Of a DNA stretch of 13,012 nucleotides, positions 1,641 through 12,469 are shown piece after piece. The translations under genes were made by a program, and so were the position numbers. Origin of the DNA: a virus (lineage: Duplodnaviria > Heunggongvirae > Uroviricota > Caudoviricetes); IMG/VR virus record IMGVR_UViG_2667527633_000002. One strand, written 5' to 3'. Each line of letters opens with the position of its first letter. The stretch's first letter is position 1. Below the pieces are notes generated by a model. That model did no database searches, had not been told where the DNA came from, and saw only the letters and a list, made by a program, of their open reading frames with translations.

Positions 1641-4112
1641 TTAAGAATCAGCCTGACTCGGGATCAGTTTTTGCCAGATAACTGAAACGTATTTTGCCTG
1701 GTAACGGGCGTCATCAAGTGCATTATGGCGCTCACCTTCGAATGGAATAGCCGTTCTGGCATCGAAGTCTATGGCTTTCCCCAGCTCAACGATTGTGCGT
1801 ACATCGCGATCGTTGTAGTAACGCCACGGGCAGGGGATCCCCTGCCGTTCGTATGAACGGCGCAAAATCGTGTTGTCGAAGTTGGCTCCATTTCCCCAGA
1901 CCTGAACAAAAAATTCACCGGAGTTTTCGTCGATAAATTCCCACAATTGTAACAGTGCATCATCTAACGGGATTTCATCGGTCATAATGGCAGATTGCGC
2001 TTCGCGTGATTGCTTAAGCCACCATTTAATGGTGTCCCGATCAATGACTCCGCCAGCAGTTTCCAGATCGATAGTCTTACTAAATTCCGGTCCCATATCT
2101 CCGGTTTGCGGATCGAAAAATATTGCACCTATTGAGATGATCGGGGCATCAGGATTTTTTCCCATGGTTTCAAGGTCGATCATTAGATGGTCACACGTCC
2201 TGCTGGTGGATGTGATTTCTTGATGACCGTTCACCTTAATTGAGTGATCTGCCGTCTCGCCAGTTTCATTATCGCTATCGTGATGCTGATTGCCGCCAGT
2301 GTTCTCCTTGTGTGGATGTTCAGCGCCTTCCATTTCCTCCGGATCATCTTCCTGAACTTCAATCTGATACTCTTCATCGAATGTTTCCTGGTATGTTGCG
2401 TCGCCCATTACCGCGCCACAATCAGGGCAGTTGCCGCCGCCGGTCTGACCGCAGGCGGTGCAGACTTTTTCCACTTCCTGTTGCGCCACTGATTCAGGCT
2501 GTTTCGTTTCTGGCTCGTTTTGTAACGCATTTGGGCTGTTTTGTTCCGCTTTTTGGTAGTTCCGTTCCGATTCATGCTGGTTCTGGTTCACAGAATCGCG
2601 GGTCTGGATCCCCTTAACCCATTTCGGATCATTCGGGTCACTAATCCCTTCAACAAATTCACCACGTGATGCAGCAAGCAACTTATCGGCGTCAGGCTGG
2701 ATGATATTGGCTGCCTGCATAATTTTGTTTACTTCGTCAGCGGTAACTTTTATCGGCTCTGGTTGTTCTGAATCTTCAGCGGTATCTACATTTTGCGGTA
2801 AGCCCGTGTATGTGCCATTTTTTCGGGCAAAATATTCTTCTTTTGTGATTTCAGTGGCGCCAGCAGCCAGTGCCTTATCCAGACCAGAAAGTTTGTTTGC
2901 GCGACCGTATTTTTCTCCGTCCTTATCTGCGAAGAGGAAATAGAACGGCCCCTCACGCTCTACAGATGGTTCAGCTTCCGGCGCGGTTTCATTTTTTGGG
3001 ATATCAGATACCTCAGTTTCCACTGCATCAGTTTGTGTTTCTGATGACTGGAGAACATCAACAGTGCCCAGGTCTGTTTCTTCATTCTCAAACACGCCCT
3101 TTGTCGTCAGGTATTCGCAGATATATTTGTTCAGTGCTACGGGATCTTTGTGAATGTCGATCGGACGCTCACGGACAAGGCCAAAAATAGTTTGGCGGTC
3201 GTAGCGAAGGGCATCAGGCTGTTTGCGCATTGATGCCGAGATACGCTTCCAGTCTTCGCGGTCGTTGTCGATAACTTCATTTTTTGCCCAGCGATGGATG
3301 CTGCCGTCAATGTTTCCGGCATCCACATCACCAGGCCAGAGAGCGTAGGCCAGTTCGTCATCCAGTGTTTTCCATGTCTGCTTGTATTCGCGATGAATGG
3401 CAGCAATGACCGGGCTGATTTTTCCTGTTGAATTTTCAGTGTACTGTTGATTGGCTCTGGCGCGGGCGAGATCAACAACAGACGTGTATTTTCCGGTTTC
3501 CTTGCGTTCACCTTCGCGACGTTTTTTCCAGATGCGCATCTCTGCCTGAATTTCGGGCCATTTAGCACCAGGAATACATTTATGCTTAACCCACCCAATG
3601 GCGTGCAACTTAAGCTCCGGATACATGGCGTTAACTTCTGGCATTTTCATCAACGCTTCAACGATATGTCCGTCGAATGTTGCCATGTCTTCCTGCAACA
3701 ATTCCTGTGCGCTAATAACCATATCAACGGTGATGTTTTCACATGTGTCGAACTTAACCATGACAGCGTTCTGTACTTCAGGGGCCAGCTTGTCAAAAGT
3801 GACGTTCATCGGATCGGATTCAGTCTCAACCGGGACAAAAGAAGCAGACTCCTCATCCCAGCGGTTTTCCTGCATATATTCAGCATCCCATGAATCGAGG
3901 GCAGGGCGGGGTATGCCAGGTTTATCCTCGCAGACAATAAATTTATAAGCGCAGTCCTGAGCAGCCGGATAATGTTCCAGGAATTGCCAGTGAAATTTTG
4001 CTCGAGCACGGCGTTCGTCGCCAGCTTCAATGGCTGTGGCTACAGCCACAGCGCCTTCTTCCCTTGTTGCCAGTTCGTCAGGAATAGCGGCGCAAATAAA
4101 GACTTTACTCAT
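1641..4112 (-). CDS. Prophage exonuclease with C-terminal DnaQ-like DEDDh 3'-5' exonuclease domain (full-length relative of the K-12 YdfE fragment, often annotated exodeoxyribonuclease VIII)
   Basis: Long ORF (835 codons from a TTG at 4148; 823 aa from the ATG at 4112, which has a GAGG Shine-Dalgarno 9 nt upstream). The C-terminus carries the three DEDDh motifs: MIDLETMG, VWGNGANFD and HNALDDARY. The middle is a long acidic low-complexity stretch containing a Cys4 motif CTACGQTGGGNCPDCG. The N-terminus MSKVFICAAIPDELATREEG matches my memory of K-12 ydfE. Confidence 0.85.
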   Translation of the reverse strand: MSKVFICAAIPDELATREEGAVAVATAIEAGDERRARAKFHWQFLEHYPAAQDCAYKFIVCEDKPGIPRPALDSWDAEYMQENRWDEESASFVPVETESDPMNVTFDKLAPEVQNAVMVKFDTCENITVDMVISAQELLQEDMATFDGHIVEALMKMPEVNAMYPELKLHAIGWVKHKCIPGAKWPEIQAEMRIWKKRREGERKETGKYTSVVDLARARANQQYTENSTGKISPVIAAIHREYKQTWKTLDDELAYALWPGDVDAGNIDGSIHRWAKNEVIDNDREDWKRISASMRKQPDALRYDRQTIFGLVRERPIDIHKDPVALNKYICEYLTTKGVFENEETDLGTVDVLQSSETQTDAVETEVSDIPKNETAPEAEPSVEREGPFYFLFADKDGEKYGRANKLSGLDKALAAGATEITKEEYFARKNGTYTGLPQNVDTAEDSEQPEPIKVTADEVNKIMQAANIIQPDADKLLAASRGEFVEGISDPNDPKWVKGIQTRDSVNQNQHESERNYQKAEQNSPNALQNEPETKQPESVAQQEVEKVCTACGQTGGGNCPDCGAVMGDATYQETFDEEYQIEVQEDDPEEMEGAEHPHKENTGGNQHHDSDNETGETADHSIKVNGHQEITSTSRTCDHLMIDLETMGKNPDAPIISIGAIFFDPQTGDMGPEFSKTIDLETAGGVIDRDTIKWWLKQSREAQSAIMTDEIPLDDALLQLWEFIDENSGEFFVQVWGNGANFDNTILRRSYERQGIPCPWRYYNDRDVRTIVELGKAIDFDARTAIPFEGERHNALDDARYQAKYVSVIWQKLIPSQADS

Positions 4113-4204
4113 TTGTTTTAACCTCATGACAGATTTAAGGATGAACAAATCCCTGCCATTGCTGGCATATAAGAATGAAACCGGATATTTATTACGGAAC
4201 TGTT

Positions 4205-4750: not shown

Positions 4751-4808
4751 AAAAAGGGCGGCAGAGCAGTCACGGAGTAAAACTGATACCGCCAAACGTC
4801 ACCAGAAA
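4751..4808 (-). ncRNA. dicF: DicF small regulatory RNA (ftsZ-targeting), including terminator U-tract
   Basis: The minus-strand sequence TTTCTGGTGACGTTTGGCGGTATCAGTTTTACTCCGTGACTGCTCTGCCGCCCTTTTT matches the DicF sequence as I recall it. GGCGG and CCGCC arms followed by a T5 run form the terminator. Lies between ydfC and dicB as in the dicB operon. Confidence 0.75.
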
Positions 4809-7422: not shown

Positions 7423-8499
7423 GTGAGTATGGCTAACGCCTGGCTCAGATTATGGCATGACATGCCAAATGACCCTAAGTGGCGAACAATTGCCAGGGTG
7501 TCAGGGCAGCCAATTGCAACAGTGATGGCAGTGTATATCCACCTCCTGGTGAGCGCGTCACGAAATGTCACGCGAGGTCACATTGATGTCACGACAGAAG
7601 ATTTGGCAAGTGCGCTCGACGTGACAGAAGAGGTAATTGATTCAATTTTGCAGACGATGCAGGGGCGGGTACTTGATGGTGATTTAATCACTGGATGGGA
7701 AAAACGCCAGGTGCTGAAAGAGGACAACGGCAATATTTCGCAAACCGCAAAATCTCCGGCAGAGCGCAAGAGGGCGCAGCGAGAGAGGGAAAGAAAGCGG
7801 GAACAAAATGGCGATTGTCACGGCGCGTCACGAAATGTCACGCACATGTCACGACGAGTCACGACAGATAAAGATACAGATAAAGATACAGATCAAGAAG
7901 ATCAAAACACTATGGTCCATGGCGTAAAAAACGCCACGAACCAGGCAGGGGATGTTCAGACCGTCAATCCTGGTCAGCCAGCAGGCACGACACCGGAAGC
8001 CGATTCAGCGTATGCGCTGAAAGCCGATTCGGGCGCTGTGCAGCAGGTGATGACCCCAAGGCCGGAGCAATCACACCAACTGCAGCAGCCTGAAGCCGAT
8101 TCCGCCATTCAGCGGGAAGCCGATCGGGTAGTCCCGGAAAACACCGGGCTGTCTGTGGGACGAGTGGATTATCCGGATGTGTTCGAACAGGTCTGGCGGG
8201 AGTACCCGTTGCGTGCCGGAGCAAACCCGAAGAAATCCGCTTTCAGTGCCTGGAAGGCCAGATTACGCGAGGGGGTGCCACCAGAGGCCATGCTGGATGG
8301 CGTGAGGCGTTACGCAAGATACTTGGCGGCTACCGGGAAAACGGGAACGGAATTTGTTCAGCGAGCGACGACGTTTTTTGGACCGGACCGGAATTTTGAG
8401 AACCCCTGGTTGCTCCCGGTAAGCGGCACGAACAACCAGCGTTGTGTGAATCATATTTCTGAACCGGATACCGAAATTCCACCGGGCTTCAGGGGGTAA
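7423..8499 (+). CDS. Phage replication initiator / replisome organiser (iteron-binding, conserved phage C-terminal domain)
   Basis: 358 aa with a GAGGTGA Shine-Dalgarno. The C-terminal segment YPLRAGANPKKSAFSAWKARLREGVPPEAMLDGVRRYARYL is typical of phage replication proteins. Two iteron clusters lie inside the gene. Confidence 0.8.
   Translation: MSMANAWLRLWHDMPNDPKWRTIARVSGQPIATVMAVYIHLLVSASRNVTRGHIDVTTEDLASALDVTEEVIDSILQTMQGRVLDGDLITGWEKRQVLKEDNGNISQTAKSPAERKRAQRERERKREQNGDCHGASRNVTHMSRRVTTDKDTDKDTDQEDQNTMVHGVKNATNQAGDVQTVNPGQPAGTTPEADSAYALKADSGAVQQVMTPRPEQSHQLQQPEADSAIQREADRVVPENTGLSVGRVDYPDVFEQVWREYPLRAGANPKKSAFSAWKARLREGVPPEAMLDGVRRYARYLAATGKTGTEFVQRATTFFGPDRNFENPWLLPVSGTNNQRCVNHISEPDTEIPPGFRG
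7557..7593. repeat. Iteron cluster 1: four GTCAC(G/A) hexamers phased at 10-11 bp
   Basis: Hexamers start at 7557, 7567, 7577 and 7588. Confidence 0.7.
7817..7863. repeat. Iteron cluster 2: five GTCACG hexamers phased at 10-11 bp (putative origin core)
   Basis: Hexamers start at 7817, 7827, 7837, 7848 and 7858. The 19-mer GCGTCACGAAATGTCACGC is shared with cluster 1. Confidence 0.7.
7865..7900. repeat. AT-rich tandem repeat adjoining the iterons (2 x CAGATAAAGATA plus a diverged third copy with two GATC sites)
   Basis: Perfect 12-bp copies at 7865-7876 and 7877-7888, then CAGATCAAGAAG. Encodes DKDTDKDTDQED in the initiator. Resembles the iteron plus AT-rich layout of lambda ori inside gene O. 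Confidence 0.6.
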
Positions 8500-8539
8500 G
8501 TGTTGATTTCTGGTCATGAGGTAATTTTCAGGAGGGCTT

Positions 8540-8962
8540 GTGGCAAAAGTTTTTACACAAGAAGAGCGAGAAAAAATTAAAGGGCAGGTTGTTGAACTCG
8601 TACGCCAGAGTGGGCGTGAGACGTTACGGCAACTGGAAGTCAAGACAGGTGCGACAAGATATCTGATGAGCGTTCTCGCAAGAGAGCTGGTTGCCAGCGG
8701 CGATGTATACAACTCCGGCTACGGGTTATTCCCCTCTGAACAGGCGCGTAAGGACTGGCAAAACGCCCGCAAAAAACTCTCGAGGGCAAAGGTGAAGAAA
8801 CCTGCTGTGGTTGATCCGGACCTTATCTGGTCATCACCTGACGGAGAAATACGTCGCTACGACAGTCGCCTAAACATAATCTGTCGCGAGTGCCGGAAGA
8901 GTGAAGCTATGCAGCGTGTACTGGCTTTCTATCAGGGTAATTTTCAGGAGGCGGTACTGTGA
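8540..8962 (+). CDS. Hypothetical protein (140 aa), GTG start
   Basis: AGGAGG lies 4 nt upstream of the GTG. Basic protein with no family I recognise. Confidence 0.55.
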   Translation: MAKVFTQEEREKIKGQVVELVRQSGRETLRQLEVKTGATRYLMSVLARELVASGDVYNSGYGLFPSEQARKDWQNARKKLSRAKVKKPAVVDPDLIWSSPDGEIRRYDSRLNIICRECRKSEAMQRVLAFYQGNFQEAVL

Positions 8963-9019
8963 GTGAAATTAGCTATCAGGCTTCAATTACCGCTGGCATT
9001 CGCATCAAAGGAGAGGAGC

Positions 9020-9376
9020 ATGGAAATAAAACCAGAGGATGAGTTAAGCAATATCGTTTTATTTCCGGTAAAAGAGGATGACCCTCGTAATCAGGTTAAT
9101 TTTCTTTATGAGCCATCGGAAAGACCATATTGTCATCACGCCTCTGTCCGGGTTGACGAAAAAGAGCGTCAGGTCCGCTGTAAAATCTGCGGTGCAGTTG
9201 TGGAGCCATTTGACTGGATGCTCTCTGTGGCGAAAAGAGAAACCAGACTGGCAGATGATGTAAGGCTCTTGCGTCAGGAGGAGCGGGAAAGGCGAAAAAA
9301 TATAGAAAAGCTAATTCAGATTGAGCGTAACGCGAAAGCGCGGATACGCAGGGCGACAAAATCCAGAACTGAATAA
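9020..9376 (+). CDS. Hypothetical protein with putative zinc-ribbon (C-H-H ... C-x-x-C) and basic coiled-coil tail
   Basis: ATG at 9020 has AAGGAGAGGAG just upstream. An alternative GTG start at 8963 lies downstream of the second copy of the repeated 16-bp initiation box. Motif YCHHASVRVDEKERQVRCKICG. Confidence 0.5.
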   Translation: MEIKPEDELSNIVLFPVKEDDPRNQVNFLYEPSERPYCHHASVRVDEKERQVRCKICGAVVEPFDWMLSVAKRETRLADDVRLLRQEERERRKNIEKLIQIERNAKARIRRATKSRTE

Positions 9377-9446
9377 TTAAATTTAGCTCTGTTAAAAATT
9401 TAATCCTTAACCGGAGGGATTTCTGCACCCTCAGAACATCAGGAGG

Positions 9447-9462
9447 CCGCCCGAAAGGGCGG
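9447..9462 (+). promoter_or_regulatory. Perfect 6-bp stem with GAAA tetraloop between an AGGAGG Shine-Dalgarno and the ATG at 9470
   Basis: CCGCCC-GAAA-GGGCGG. AGGAGG is at 9441-9446. No U-tract follows, so it is not a classic intrinsic terminator. Confidence 0.4.
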
Positions 9463-9469
9463 TAGTTAA

Positions 9470-9652
9470 ATGCGAAAGTTTAAAATAATTATTGAAACGG
9501 GAATAGCCGGTGGAGATTTCGAGGATGAATTCGAAGTGGATGATGATGCGACGCCTGATGAAATACATGACGAAGCAAAAGATATTTTCTTTAACTACTG
9601 CAATTACTCATATCACGAAATAAAAGACGAAGAGGAAGAACAAAATGGCTGA
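9470..9652 (+). CDS. Small highly acidic protein (60 aa)
   Basis: MRKFKIIIETGIAGGDFEDEFEVDDDATPDEIHDEAKDIFFNYCNYSYHEIKDEEEEQNG: about 20 D/E against 5 K/R. Confidence 0.5.
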   Translation: MRKFKIIIETGIAGGDFEDEFEVDDDATPDEIHDEAKDIFFNYCNYSYHEIKDEEEEQNG

Positions 9653-9821
9653 TTTTGGTTCAACTAAATACAACGTCAGTTTTGAAGAATGGCATGAACT
9701 GTTAATGGACTATGCAGAGTTACGTGGTGGCAGTGCTGCTGATGCTGAAGCATGGCGTGATGATTATGAAGCAGGAAAAACTCCGGTCGAAGCATATTGT
9801 GATGAGTGGGGCGATGAATGA
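9645..9821 (+). CDS. Small acidic protein (58 aa), not in the supplied ORF track
   Basis: Hand translation gives MADFGSTKYNVSFEEWHELLMDYAELRGGSAADAEAWRDDYEAGKTPVEAYCDEWGDE. The ATG overlaps the previous gene's end (ATGGCTGA), with a GAGGA Shine-Dalgarno 9 nt upstream. Its stop overlaps the next start (ATGA). Confidence 0.45.
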   Translation: MADFGSTKYNVSFEEWHELLMDYAELRGGSAADAEAWRDDYEAGKTPVEAYCDEWGDE

Positions 9822-10134
9822 GCGAGGTTAATTATCAGGAAGGGCATGAAACGGCGGGGCAAGCAAAAACAGTGGCATGGCGATATCGCTACGTGAAAAA
9901 AAAGGCGTTACGGACTTTCAGGGGAAGTAGTGGTCTGGTGACTGGAAATATGTACCGAAAAAAGAGGATTGTAACGACAGGCCGAACTATGAAATTCAGG
10001 CCTTATTCACTGCCCCGCCAGTCCCGGTTACATCAGAAGAACTGGTTAAAGCTGTGCACTTTTATGAACAACTAAAACGCGAAAATCCACCAGCATCCGG
10101 AAACCTGATTACAGATTCCCAGATAAGGCAATGA
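9818..10134 (+). CDS. Hypothetical gene that changes frame at an A_AAA_AAG heptamer (candidate programmed -1 frameshift, pseudogene or homopolymer error)
   Basis: The ATG-initiated frame (9818-10075) turns arginine-rich and unprotein-like after about codon 49. The -1 frame is open from 9931 to 10134, is protein-like (EDCNDRPNYEIQALFTAPPVPVTSEELVKAVHFYEQLKRENPPASGNLITDSQIRQ) and has no start codon of its own. The slippery heptamer A_AAA_AAG sits at 9958-9964 in the zero frame. Confidence 0.4.
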
Positions 10135-10229
10135 GCTACCTGGCGCAGAACGGGCTGATAAGTATGGGGAATGTTTTACGATGAATATTTAGACTAAAGA
10201 GTTTGTAACGCTATGTAAGTGATTTTTTC

Positions 10230-10258
10230 TGGTTTAGATATTTATATGTCCGGCCAAA
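10230..10258. repeat. Imperfect direct repeat R1 (partner at 10501-10535) flanking the small membrane-protein gene
   Basis: TGGTTTAGATATTTATATGTCCGGCCAAA versus TGGTTTAGTTGGATATTTACTGTGCCGGACAAAAA. Confidence 0.4.
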
Positions 10259-10304
10259 TTGAGGTGTGTTTAAATGTAATTGCACATTGATTGTAGGAGG
10301 AATA

Positions 10305-10484
10305 ATGAAAAACGCATTGCAGTTTTTGTTTGTTGCGTTCTGGTTGTTCGTATCATGTATGCCCATCATCTTCACAGCAAGGTATATGGAAAAAGTTGAT
10401 GTTTTGATATTAATATTTGGATATATAAATGCCCTTTTTTTAGGGGTGTTCATGGCGGTCATGTGCATTGAATACTGGCGGTAA
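10305..10484 (+). CDS. Small hydrophobic membrane protein (59 aa, two predicted TM helices) in an AT-rich island
   Basis: AGGAGG lies 4 nt upstream of the ATG. MKNALQFLFVAFWLFVSCMPIIFTARYMEKVDVLILIFGYINALFLGVFMAVMCIEYWR. By eye the surrounding 10140-10500 is much more AT-rich than its flanks. Confidence 0.55.
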   Translation: MKNALQFLFVAFWLFVSCMPIIFTARYMEKVDVLILIFGYINALFLGVFMAVMCIEYWR

Positions 10485-10500
10485 ATACAGCGAACGCCAT

Positions 10501-10535
10501 TGGTTTAGTTGGATATTTACTGTGCCGGACAAAAA
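10501..10535. repeat. Imperfect direct repeat R2 (partner of 10230-10258)
   Basis: See R1. Overlaps the region where a hok promoter would be expected; a TAGAAT hexamer lies at about 10554-10559. Confidence 0.4.
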
Positions 10536-10742
10536 CGGTTTGCGGGGAAATCTTAGTTAAGTAGAATGACTGCGGGTGCTTGAGGCTATCTGTCTCAGGC
10601 ATGAACACCAAAAGGCAGATAGAGAAAAGCCCCAGTTAACATTACGCGTCCTGCAAGACGCTTAACATTAATCTGAGGCCATATCTATGCGACACATAGA
10701 GATTAGCCTCTTACGGACCGAAAGGTCAAGGAGAAGCAGGCT

Positions 10743-10898
10743 ATGAAGCAGCAAAAGGCGATGTTAATCGCCCTGATCGTCATCTGTTTAACCGTCATAG
10801 TGACGGCACTGGTAACGAGGAAAGACCTCTGCGAGGTACGAATCCGAACCGGCCAGACGGAGGTCGCTGTCTTCACAGCTTACGAACCTGAGGAGTAA
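10743..10898 (+). CDS. hokD: Hok-family type I toxin (HokD/RelF-like, 51 aa)
   Basis: MKQQKAMLIALIVICLTVIVTALVTRKDLCEVRIRTGQTEVAVFTAYEPEE matches HokD as I recall it. Below the ORF-track cut-off. AAGGAGAAG lies upstream. Confidence 0.85.
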   Translation: MKQQKAMLIALIVICLTVIVTALVTRKDLCEVRIRTGQTEVAVFTAYEPEE

Positions 10899-10966
10899 GA
10901 GACCTGGCGGGGGAGAAATCCCTCGCCACCTCTGATGTGTCAGGCATCCTCAACGCACCCGCACGT

Positions 10967-12412: not shown

Positions 12413-12469
12413 ATGCGTGATATTCAGATGGTTCTTGAGCGTTGGGGAGCGTGGGCGGCNNNNNNNNNN
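12413..12469 (+). CDS. Late-gene antiterminator Q (Quu-type), N-terminal fragment cut by the assembly gap
   Basis: MRDIQMVLERWGAWA matches the N-terminus of E. coli prophage Q/Quu proteins as I recall it. GGAG lies 7 nt upstream. Reading frame runs into the N run at 12470. Confidence 0.6.

Follow-up and report, generated by a model that had tools for sequence, protein, structure and literature searches.

What do two small, strongly acidic proteins, encoded next to each other in the accessory stretch of a prophage, do, and are they DNA mimics? The question is raised by a 13,012-nucleotide (nt) stretch of phage DNA (IMG/VR record IMGVR_UViG_2667527633_000002, Caudoviricetes). We refer to this whole stretch as the window and, unless another record is named, give all coordinates in it. 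Five co-directional genes, labeled here g1 to g5, lie on the plus strand at 8540-10184; four of them code for proteins of 140, 118, 60 and 58 amino acids (aa), and the fifth is decayed. A preliminary description of the window had singled out the 60-aa and 58-aa proteins (g3 and g4) and likened them to DNA-mimic anti-restriction or anti-defence proteins. We propose, with moderate confidence, that g3 and g4 are small proteins that bind or inhibit, stoichiometrically, a protein of the host or of a competitor, and that they are used in host take-over or counter-defence. We arrive at this reading because both proteins are small, have no enzyme motif, keep their charge and have moved horizontally between unrelated mobile elements. 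DNA mimicry is one of several ways in which proteins of this kind work.

Two small protein families with conserved acidity

The two acidic genes and the leader of the first are located as follows.

9441-9469, plus strand: g3 initiation leader, with the Shine-Dalgarno (SD) sequence AGGAGG at 9441-9446, a stem formed by 9446-9452 and 9457-9463, a GAAA loop and 6 nt to the ATG at 9470
9470-9652, plus strand: g3, 60 aa; matches PF23768 (DUF7167) at 7.9e-15 and phrog_1997 at 9e-31
9645-9821, plus strand: g4, 58 aa; matches phrog_519 at 4.5e-23 over profile positions 76-137 of 143

The coordinates of the genes are the same in the list of open reading frames (ORFs) and in the annotation produced by the Prokaryotic Genome Annotation Pipeline (PGAP) for the 100% identical chromosome of E. 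coli FDAARGOS_536, which bears out the five packed plus-strand genes of the preliminary description. The cluster is genuine but ordinary, and its families are already listed in Pfam or PHROGs and annotated in hundreds of RefSeq genomes. The claim that none of its genes belongs to a recognized family does not stand: g1 is assigned to PF06163 (DUF977) and g3 to PF23768 (DUF7167; 55.1 bits against a cut-off of 24.4, PGAP name 'DUF7167 family protein'), and all five match PHROG families. There is no Pfam family for g4, and NCBIfam has no family for any of the five genes. In each family there are homologs whose identity is 35-60% and whose hydrophobic core is conserved, which indicates that these are more than chance ORFs.

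Composition and alignments agree with what had been said about the charge of the two proteins (net about -15 and -12) and about the 16 acidic residues and conserved tryptophan of the smaller one. The g3 protein has 20 D/E (33%) and five K/R residues, a net charge of -15 and an isoelectric point (pI) of 4.05; for g4 the respective values are 16 D/E (28%), four K/R, -12 and 4.05, and it includes three tryptophans. The DUF7167 alignment, which takes in sequences from Enterococcus and Pseudomonas phages, has the invariant residues I8-E9-T10, E22, A36, F40 and C44, a median net charge of -13 and 17 positions with an acidic residue in 60% or more of the sequences. The g4 family was collected by an exhaustive profile search, which returned only 65 representative clusters, nearly all of 50-65 aa. 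W37 is the same in every sequence of its alignment, and W16, G44 and P47 come close to that; the median net charge is -10, and at 12 positions the share of members with an acidic residue is 60% or higher. Since negative charge is kept across both families, acidity is a selected feature rather than a local quirk.

Structure models were built for both proteins with AlphaFold2 (AF2) from shallow alignments, and their confidence is moderate. The g3 model (predicted local distance difference test score, pLDDT, of 79) consists of strands 2-10 and 15-23, helix 29-40, strand 46-51 and an acidic C-terminal helix, so that the predicted fold is beta-beta-alpha-beta with an acidic C-terminal tail. The g4 model (pLDDT 81) is a three-helix bundle (helices 13-27, 34-42 and 47-55). 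Its predicted core is formed by tryptophan, and a narrower alignment of ten sequences shows a conserved GGSAAD loop.

The SD sequence of g3 lies 23 nt away from the ATG. According to RNA folding, the stem between them has seven pairs (six G-C and one G-U), and if the hairpin forms, the distance shrinks to about 6-7 nt. The leader element, TCAGGAGGCCGCCCGAAAGGGCGGTA..ATG, is identical across four loci with differing upstream flanks. Initiation of g3 thus probably uses an SD sequence brought near the AUG by a conserved GC hairpin. Such a split arrangement of SD and AUG is known from T4 genes 38 and 25.

One could argue that g3 and g4 are selfish filler ORFs with no function, all the more so as the neighboring g5 has decayed in this lineage and parts of the region are therefore dispensable. 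However, the reading frames of both genes are intact, and hydrophobic cores and acidic positions are kept down to 35-45% identity across classes of mobile elements. Moreover, a structured ribosome-binding site has been conserved at g3. We give this explanation very little credence.

DNA mimicry deserves closer consideration. Here, g3 and/or g4 would block restriction-modification or other DNA-binding defence proteins, as do T7 Ocr, ArdA, lambda Gam, T7 gp5.9 and T4 Arn. What the two proteins have in common with these mimics, and with phi29 p56, a uracil-DNA-glycosylase inhibitor that is also a DNA mimic, is small size, a D/E share of 28-33% (Ocr is close, with 34 acidic residues in 116 aa) and an accessory place in mobile elements. 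The conservation of acidity in both families also speaks for mimicry, as does the presence of g4 in both phages and conjugative plasmids. On the other hand, the resemblance suggested by the preliminary description did not materialize in profile searches and AF2 models, which gave no sequence, profile or fold match to known mimics, Ugi among them. Neither protein has sequence or profile similarity to any solved structure. The g4 model has no fold match in PDB (best E 5.2), and the g3 model matches just generic small sandwiches, with p56 appearing only at a probability of 0.06-0.09. Known DNA mimics expose an elongated array of charges at DNA-phosphate spacing and are usually dimers, whereas both models are compact globular monomers of 58-60 aa. 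Among the features of DNA mimics, only composition is found here, namely a strong net negative charge conserved in both families. We consider it improbable that either protein is a DNA mimic. The preliminary description had also named outcomes that would speak against its proposal, and both are now seen in part: g1 is homologous to DUF977/Ren, an ordinary gene of the region, and the acidic pair has no resemblance to mimics.

The g3 model was also compared with phage inhibitors of other types. Scores against T7 Gp2, which inhibits RNA polymerase, the antitoxin T4 Dmd, AcrIIC3, AcrIC9 and AcrIE2 are not significant and are equalled by hundreds of unrelated ACT, RAM and ferredoxin-like domains. 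When the DUF7167 profile was run against PDB sequences, no T7 Gp2 chain was found at E up to 10. Gp2 needs R56 and R58 for its function; in contrast, the third beta strand of g3 (YSYHEI) has no arginine. The generic beta-beta-alpha-beta shape that g3 is predicted to share with several phage inhibitors should be taken as analogy and not as evidence of membership.

Distribution beyond lambdoid phages

Homologs of g4 (40-73% identity) occur in 202 phage records, which include Ackermannviridae, T5-like phages and the Morganella phage Mecenats66. In Vi01 (Ackermannviridae) it comes just after the gene for the major capsid protein; the homologs in Vi01 and in a T5-like phage match the same PHROG 519. 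Plasmids contribute 554 records, 516 of them conjugative, with IncI2, IncT and IncU/MOBH among the types. A copy at 80-90% identity is present in 412 plasmid records. Its context was read in one of these, the IncI2 plasmid NZ_CP011294.1 (L096:8348-10662), where the g4 homolog (88% identity) adjoins repA and the gene order is CaiF/GrlA-family regulator, DUF1187, g4, SPFH, NfeD. The copies on IncU/MOBH and IncT plasmids (49-52% identity) are embedded in long arrays of small ORFs that all lie on one strand. Homology between the phage and IncI2 sequences begins exactly at the g4 ATG; therefore, g4 is a self-contained mobile ORF. Its first codons, ATG GCT GA, supply an out-of-frame stop codon for any upstream gene.

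Two apparent leads from these contexts were not sustained. Placement of g4 in the leading region of IncI2 was considered; the gene lies about 15 kb from the presumed origin of transfer (oriT), beyond repA, and such placement is not demonstrated. The oriT has no annotation, and we assume it to lie between mobC and the next gene. In the T5-like phages EP_H11 (L013:2506-3162) and IME392 (L014:1003-1662), a NADAR gene is followed by a g4-like gene; the two form a 218-aa fusion in EP_H11 and are adjacent separate genes in IME392. The fusion results from stop-codon loss and the adjacency is seen in only 4 of 752 NADAR-containing phage records, so we rejected a functional link between NADAR and g4 as general evidence.

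The spread of g3 is different and narrower on plasmids (only 15 records). We found it in 38 phage records; 17 of these are Enterococcus phages, and the others include Klebsiella Guernseyvirinae, a Pseudomonas phage and a Phapecoctavirus. An exonuclease gene is adjacent to g3 in two groups of unrelated phages, Guernseyvirinae and Enterococcus Kochikohdavirus, and this adjacency is absent in the Phapecoctavirus, Pseudomonas and lambdoid contexts; it is a weak lead only. By eye, DUF1187, encoded upstream of g4 on IncI2, looks like a remote DUF7167 homolog, a likeness that we rejected at an hhalign probability of 0.3%. A literature search returned nothing on DUF7167 or on the RefSeq accessions, and one supplementary table of the accessory-gene screen of Silas et al. 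(2025) contains no g3 or g4 peptide strings.

Within lambdoid phages the two acidic genes travel together. We surveyed the cassette by a locus scan with the narrower g4 alignment, which picks up only E. coli prophage copies that are 98-100% identical and hence describes the cassette and not the diversity of the family. In 80 IMG/VR contigs with identical g4, g3 lies directly upstream in all but one (79/80) and most have a g5-type gene downstream; g1 and g2 are variable. In the Shiga toxin (Stx) phage ArgO145, g2, one extra small gene, g3 and g4 are located among Ead/Ea22-like genes, a setting that we interpret as the early-left operon's exo-xis region. Phage pPE4 has g3-g4-g5 after an Ead/Ea22-like gene. 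The survey and these two phages together indicate that the conserved lambdoid unit is g3-g4(-g5), moving between early operons. The unit is common: 1750 of 5426 complete E. coli genomes (32%) have g3 and g4 together, some part of the 1.7-kb region is matched in 4274 of these genomes, and at least 80% of it in 825. Nevertheless, g3 and g4 are not an obligate pair, as the phage and plasmid distributions show them apart outside lambdoid phages.

In our proposal, g3 and g4 would each act alone, binding or inhibiting a host protein or a protein of a competing element. An anti-defence or host-inhibitor role is plausible: g4 is present in unrelated phages and in conjugative plasmids and its family has been predicted by software to be anti-CRISPR. 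The prediction comes from one paper, in which Kuttervirus proteins of PHROG 519 were scored as anti-CRISPRs by the machine-learning tools PaCRISPR and AcRanker. These candidates have the family in common with g4; they are predictions only, with no similarity to a validated anti-CRISPR protein. Several observations weigh against the proposal. Neither g3 nor g4 has an experimental or homology-based link to a characterized inhibitor. The position of the Ackermannviridae g4, just behind the major capsid gene, is a poor fit to early counter-defence, as far as expression timing can be judged from gene order. On IncI2, g4 belongs to an operon with SPFH/NfeD and transfer genes and, at its distance from the presumed oriT, is not clearly in the leading region. 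The association of g4 with NADAR, whether by adjacency or by fusion, is confined to the four phage records. Finally, our search for promoters and terminators was a consensus scan only.

The same distributions bear on a different explanation, in which the genes of the cluster are developmental modulators intrinsic to the phage that tune lysogenization, induction or replication through phage or host regulators. Its model is the small ORFs of the lambdoid exo-xis/Ea22 region. The block of g2, g3 and g4 lies between Ead/Ea22-like genes in ArgO145, a likeness to that region that pPE4 shares, and in related prophages g4 is often followed by Ea22-like or PHROG 660 genes with a common MSE(I/V)NYQ N-terminus. 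In the window, by contrast, the block belongs to the early-right operon, after the replication genes, and neither g1-g5 nor the intact g5 homologs match the Pfam family Ead/Ea22-like (PF13935). Modulators would also suit a Ren-like g1, Ren having been described as likely replication-linked, and a g2 confined to temperate phages. However, strictly virulent phages and conjugative plasmids commonly carry g4, and g3 is found in virulent phages of Enterococcus, Pseudomonas and Klebsiella. Virulent phages and conjugative plasmids both have no lambdoid lysis-lysogeny switch. The distributions outside lambdoid phages thus make a role in the lysis-lysogeny circuit unlikely for g3 or g4, and we regard the modulator explanation as unlikely overall, while counting it a more serious contender than mimicry.

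The prophage setting and the neighboring genes

Four E. coli chromosomes, that of FDAARGOS_536 and those of three further strains, match the region 8500-10200 at 100% identity, and CFT073 matches it at 99.9%. The FDAARGOS_536 copy lies in a lambdoid prophage adjoining tRNA-Ser and mtfA. Upstream of the cluster the gene order there is integrase, exonuclease, ydfD, dicB, ydfC/B/A, LexA-family repressor, Cro/CI-family regulator, YdaT-family protein and phage replisome organizer; g1-g5 come next, followed by hokD, a DUF968 (HNH) protein, RusA and an antitermination protein, presumably the equivalent of Q. This gene order places the cluster where lambda has ren and the nin genes, as the preliminary description had it, and the genes are indeed tightly packed. 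The segment g1-g5 is best explained as an accessory stretch of the early-right operon in a Rac/Qin-type lambdoid prophage and as a mosaic of small genes, each independently mobile. The remaining features of the segment are listed here.

8520-8535, plus strand: first copy of an exact 16-nt direct repeat, GGTAATTTTCAGGAGG, which includes the g1 SD sequence
8540-8962, plus strand: g1, 140 aa, GTG start, SD AGGAGG, basic (pI 9.7), directly after the replisome-organizer gene
8936-8951, plus strand: second exact copy of the 16-nt repeat, GGTAATTTTCAGGAGG, inside the 3' end of g1, 11 nt before GTG 8963
9020-9376, plus strand: g2, 118 aa, pI 8.9; matches phrog_1621 at 1.8e-56
9818-10184, plus strand: g5, decayed PHROG 660 pseudogene; PGAP note 'frameshifted; internal stop'

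The first of these genes is the one with the clearest relatives. PGAP names g1 'DUF977 family protein', and it covers the whole PF06163 profile (positions 1-134 of 134) at 4.2e-28 and 98.5 bits (cut-off 22.1). It also matches phrog_142, 'Ren-like exclusion protein', at 2.3e-47. In a BLASTP comparison with lambda Ren, its C-terminal motif NIICRECRKSEAMQRVLAFY aligned to Ren residues 73-92 (60% identity over 20 aa, E 4e-7). Thus, g1 resembles Ren both in carrying the same C-terminal ECR.S.AM.RVLA.Y motif and in position, as it directly follows a replication gene in the way ren follows P in lambda. The differences are length (140 aa compared to 96 aa of Ren) and extent, the pairwise alignment covering just about 20 residues at the C-terminal end. 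No Pfam family is matched by lambda Ren itself. By homology, g1 is a DUF977/lambda Ren-like protein at the Ren position, and it is g1, rather than the acidic pair, that has the sole homology-based link to counter-exclusion in the cluster.

DUF977 was given a winged-helix fold through profile methods in a 2009 paper. A two-hybrid assay showed an interaction between lambda Ren and Rex proteins, and Ren has been described as likely to take part in replication. The DUF977 gene of Rac, ydaW, was among the blockers of retron-Sen2 RcaT toxicity in a screen. In another prophage, that of E. coli SE11, a COG1479 gene, listed in a published gene table, comes directly after the DUF977 gene (ECSE_RS07350-07355; PMC12373910, supplementary file 13); the slot behind the Ren-like gene may therefore also house defence genes.

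The two exact copies of the 16-nt repeat bracket g1, and none would be expected by chance (200 shuffles). A degenerate third copy (13 of 16 bases) is located at 9827-9842, at the 5' end of g5. These repeats may be module-junction sequences used in recombination.

The g2 protein has a zinc-ribbon-like Cys/His motif (C38, H39/H40, C54 and C57) and a basic C-terminal stretch at about residues 68-118, which, read by eye, suggests a coiled coil. Matches to Zn_Ribbon_TF and S27e are weak and below Pfam thresholds. An alternative start, GTG 8963, which would give a protein of 137 aa, is used in one phage record. Overall, g2 was found in 22 phage records, all of temperate Enterobacterales phages, and often beside Ead/Ea22-like or NinG genes.

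That the fifth gene is frameshifted had been noted before, and the decay is heavier than was supposed. Comparison with an intact 171-aa homolog reveals three lesions, namely a frameshift (A8 for A6), a sense codon turned into a TAG stop and the loss of about 155 nt. After the internal deletion, the original 3' end (the stop and the last 28 or so codons) can still be recognized at 10101-10184, so the cluster extends about 50 nt further than 10134, the end given in the preliminary description. As it stands in the window, g5 matches PHROG 660 at E 0.006, short of family membership, in contrast to 6e-43 for an intact homolog; intact homologs have no match in Pfam. About 30 of the 80 viral contigs with the same g4 share an 85-aa truncated frame in this slot, and others have an intact g5 of 119, 156 or 171 aa or an Ea22-like gene. 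In this lineage g5 is dead.

How is the cluster expressed? A consensus scan of the plus strand over 8300-10950 detected neither a sigma-70-like promoter nor an intrinsic-terminator-like site, and g1-g5 would be transcribed through read-through from the early-right promoter. Of the three overlapping junctions that had been claimed, two are present, ATGGCTGA at 9645 (g3/g4) and ATGA at 9818 (g4/g5), and the third is absent: g1 and g2 are separated by 57 nt (or abut without overlap if GTG 8963 is the g2 start), and g2 and g3 by 93 nt. The pairs g3/g4 and g4/g5 are translationally coupled. The idea that the cluster is expressed as a unit accordingly holds in part, with probable co-transcription and coupling of these two pairs.

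Could the cluster, or part of it, be a lysogen-protecting defence or toxin-antitoxin module, with the acidic proteins serving as antitoxins to basic g1 and g2? The charges are suitably opposed (pI 9.7 and 8.9 for g1 and g2, with g3 and g4 acidic), a hok/sok locus adjoins, and prophage slots of this type can carry defence genes, the COG1479 gene of SE11, which we read as GmrSD-like, being an example. The evidence to the contrary is that no PADLOC model (PADLOC-DB 2.0) matches any of the five proteins, including intact g5, or the neighboring small ORFs, that g3 and g4 are found in many contexts lacking g1 or g2, and that no separate promoter for expression in the lysogen was detected. We consider such a module very unlikely.

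Several other features of the window were recorded. The hok/sok locus at 10574-10898 (plus strand) is complete, with a sok/hok element at 10574-10745 (sok model, 106.7 bits) and the hokD ORF at 10743-10898. Between it and the g5 remnant, a 59-aa ORF at 10305-10484 (plus strand) lies in an AT-rich stretch (GC 0.35-0.375). It is absent from the PGAP annotation, has two predicted transmembrane helices and is preceded by a strong SD sequence (GTAGGAGGAATAATG). Only three phage records, closely related, match it; one has a hypothetical protein there and two have a 'hornerin' feature, which is on the opposite strand in the one record checked. Ten consecutive N, standing for masked or unknown bases, occupy 12460-12469, just downstream of the DUF968 gene. 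On the minus strand, the 835-aa 'exonuclease' (1641-4148) ends in a DEDDh domain (PADLOC DEDDh model, 9e-6); its middle region is long, acidic and of low complexity and includes a CxxC...CxxC motif. The small RNA DicF is found on the same strand at 4756-4807 (Rfam, 76.7 bits).

Possible significance of the two families

The most informative new result is the distribution of g3 and g4 beyond lambdoid phages, the cluster itself being routine prophage accessory content. A more specific version of the inhibitor proposal is possible, and we advance it tentatively: g4 would be a cross-element counter-defence or establishment protein with an undescribed tryptophan-core three-helix fold, and g3 a Gp2/Dmd-type inhibitor whose host target is conserved from Enterococcus to E. 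coli. If this were true, each of the two would define a new inhibitor family. The practical gain from the present analysis is a sharper target list. The g4 protein is present in about one-third of complete E. coli genomes, in virulent phages of the type used in therapy (Kuttervirus) and, at 80-90% identity, in more than 400 conjugative plasmid records. Should it neutralize a defence system of the host, a nucleoid factor or a transcription factor, it would have a bearing on both phage host range and plasmid establishment.

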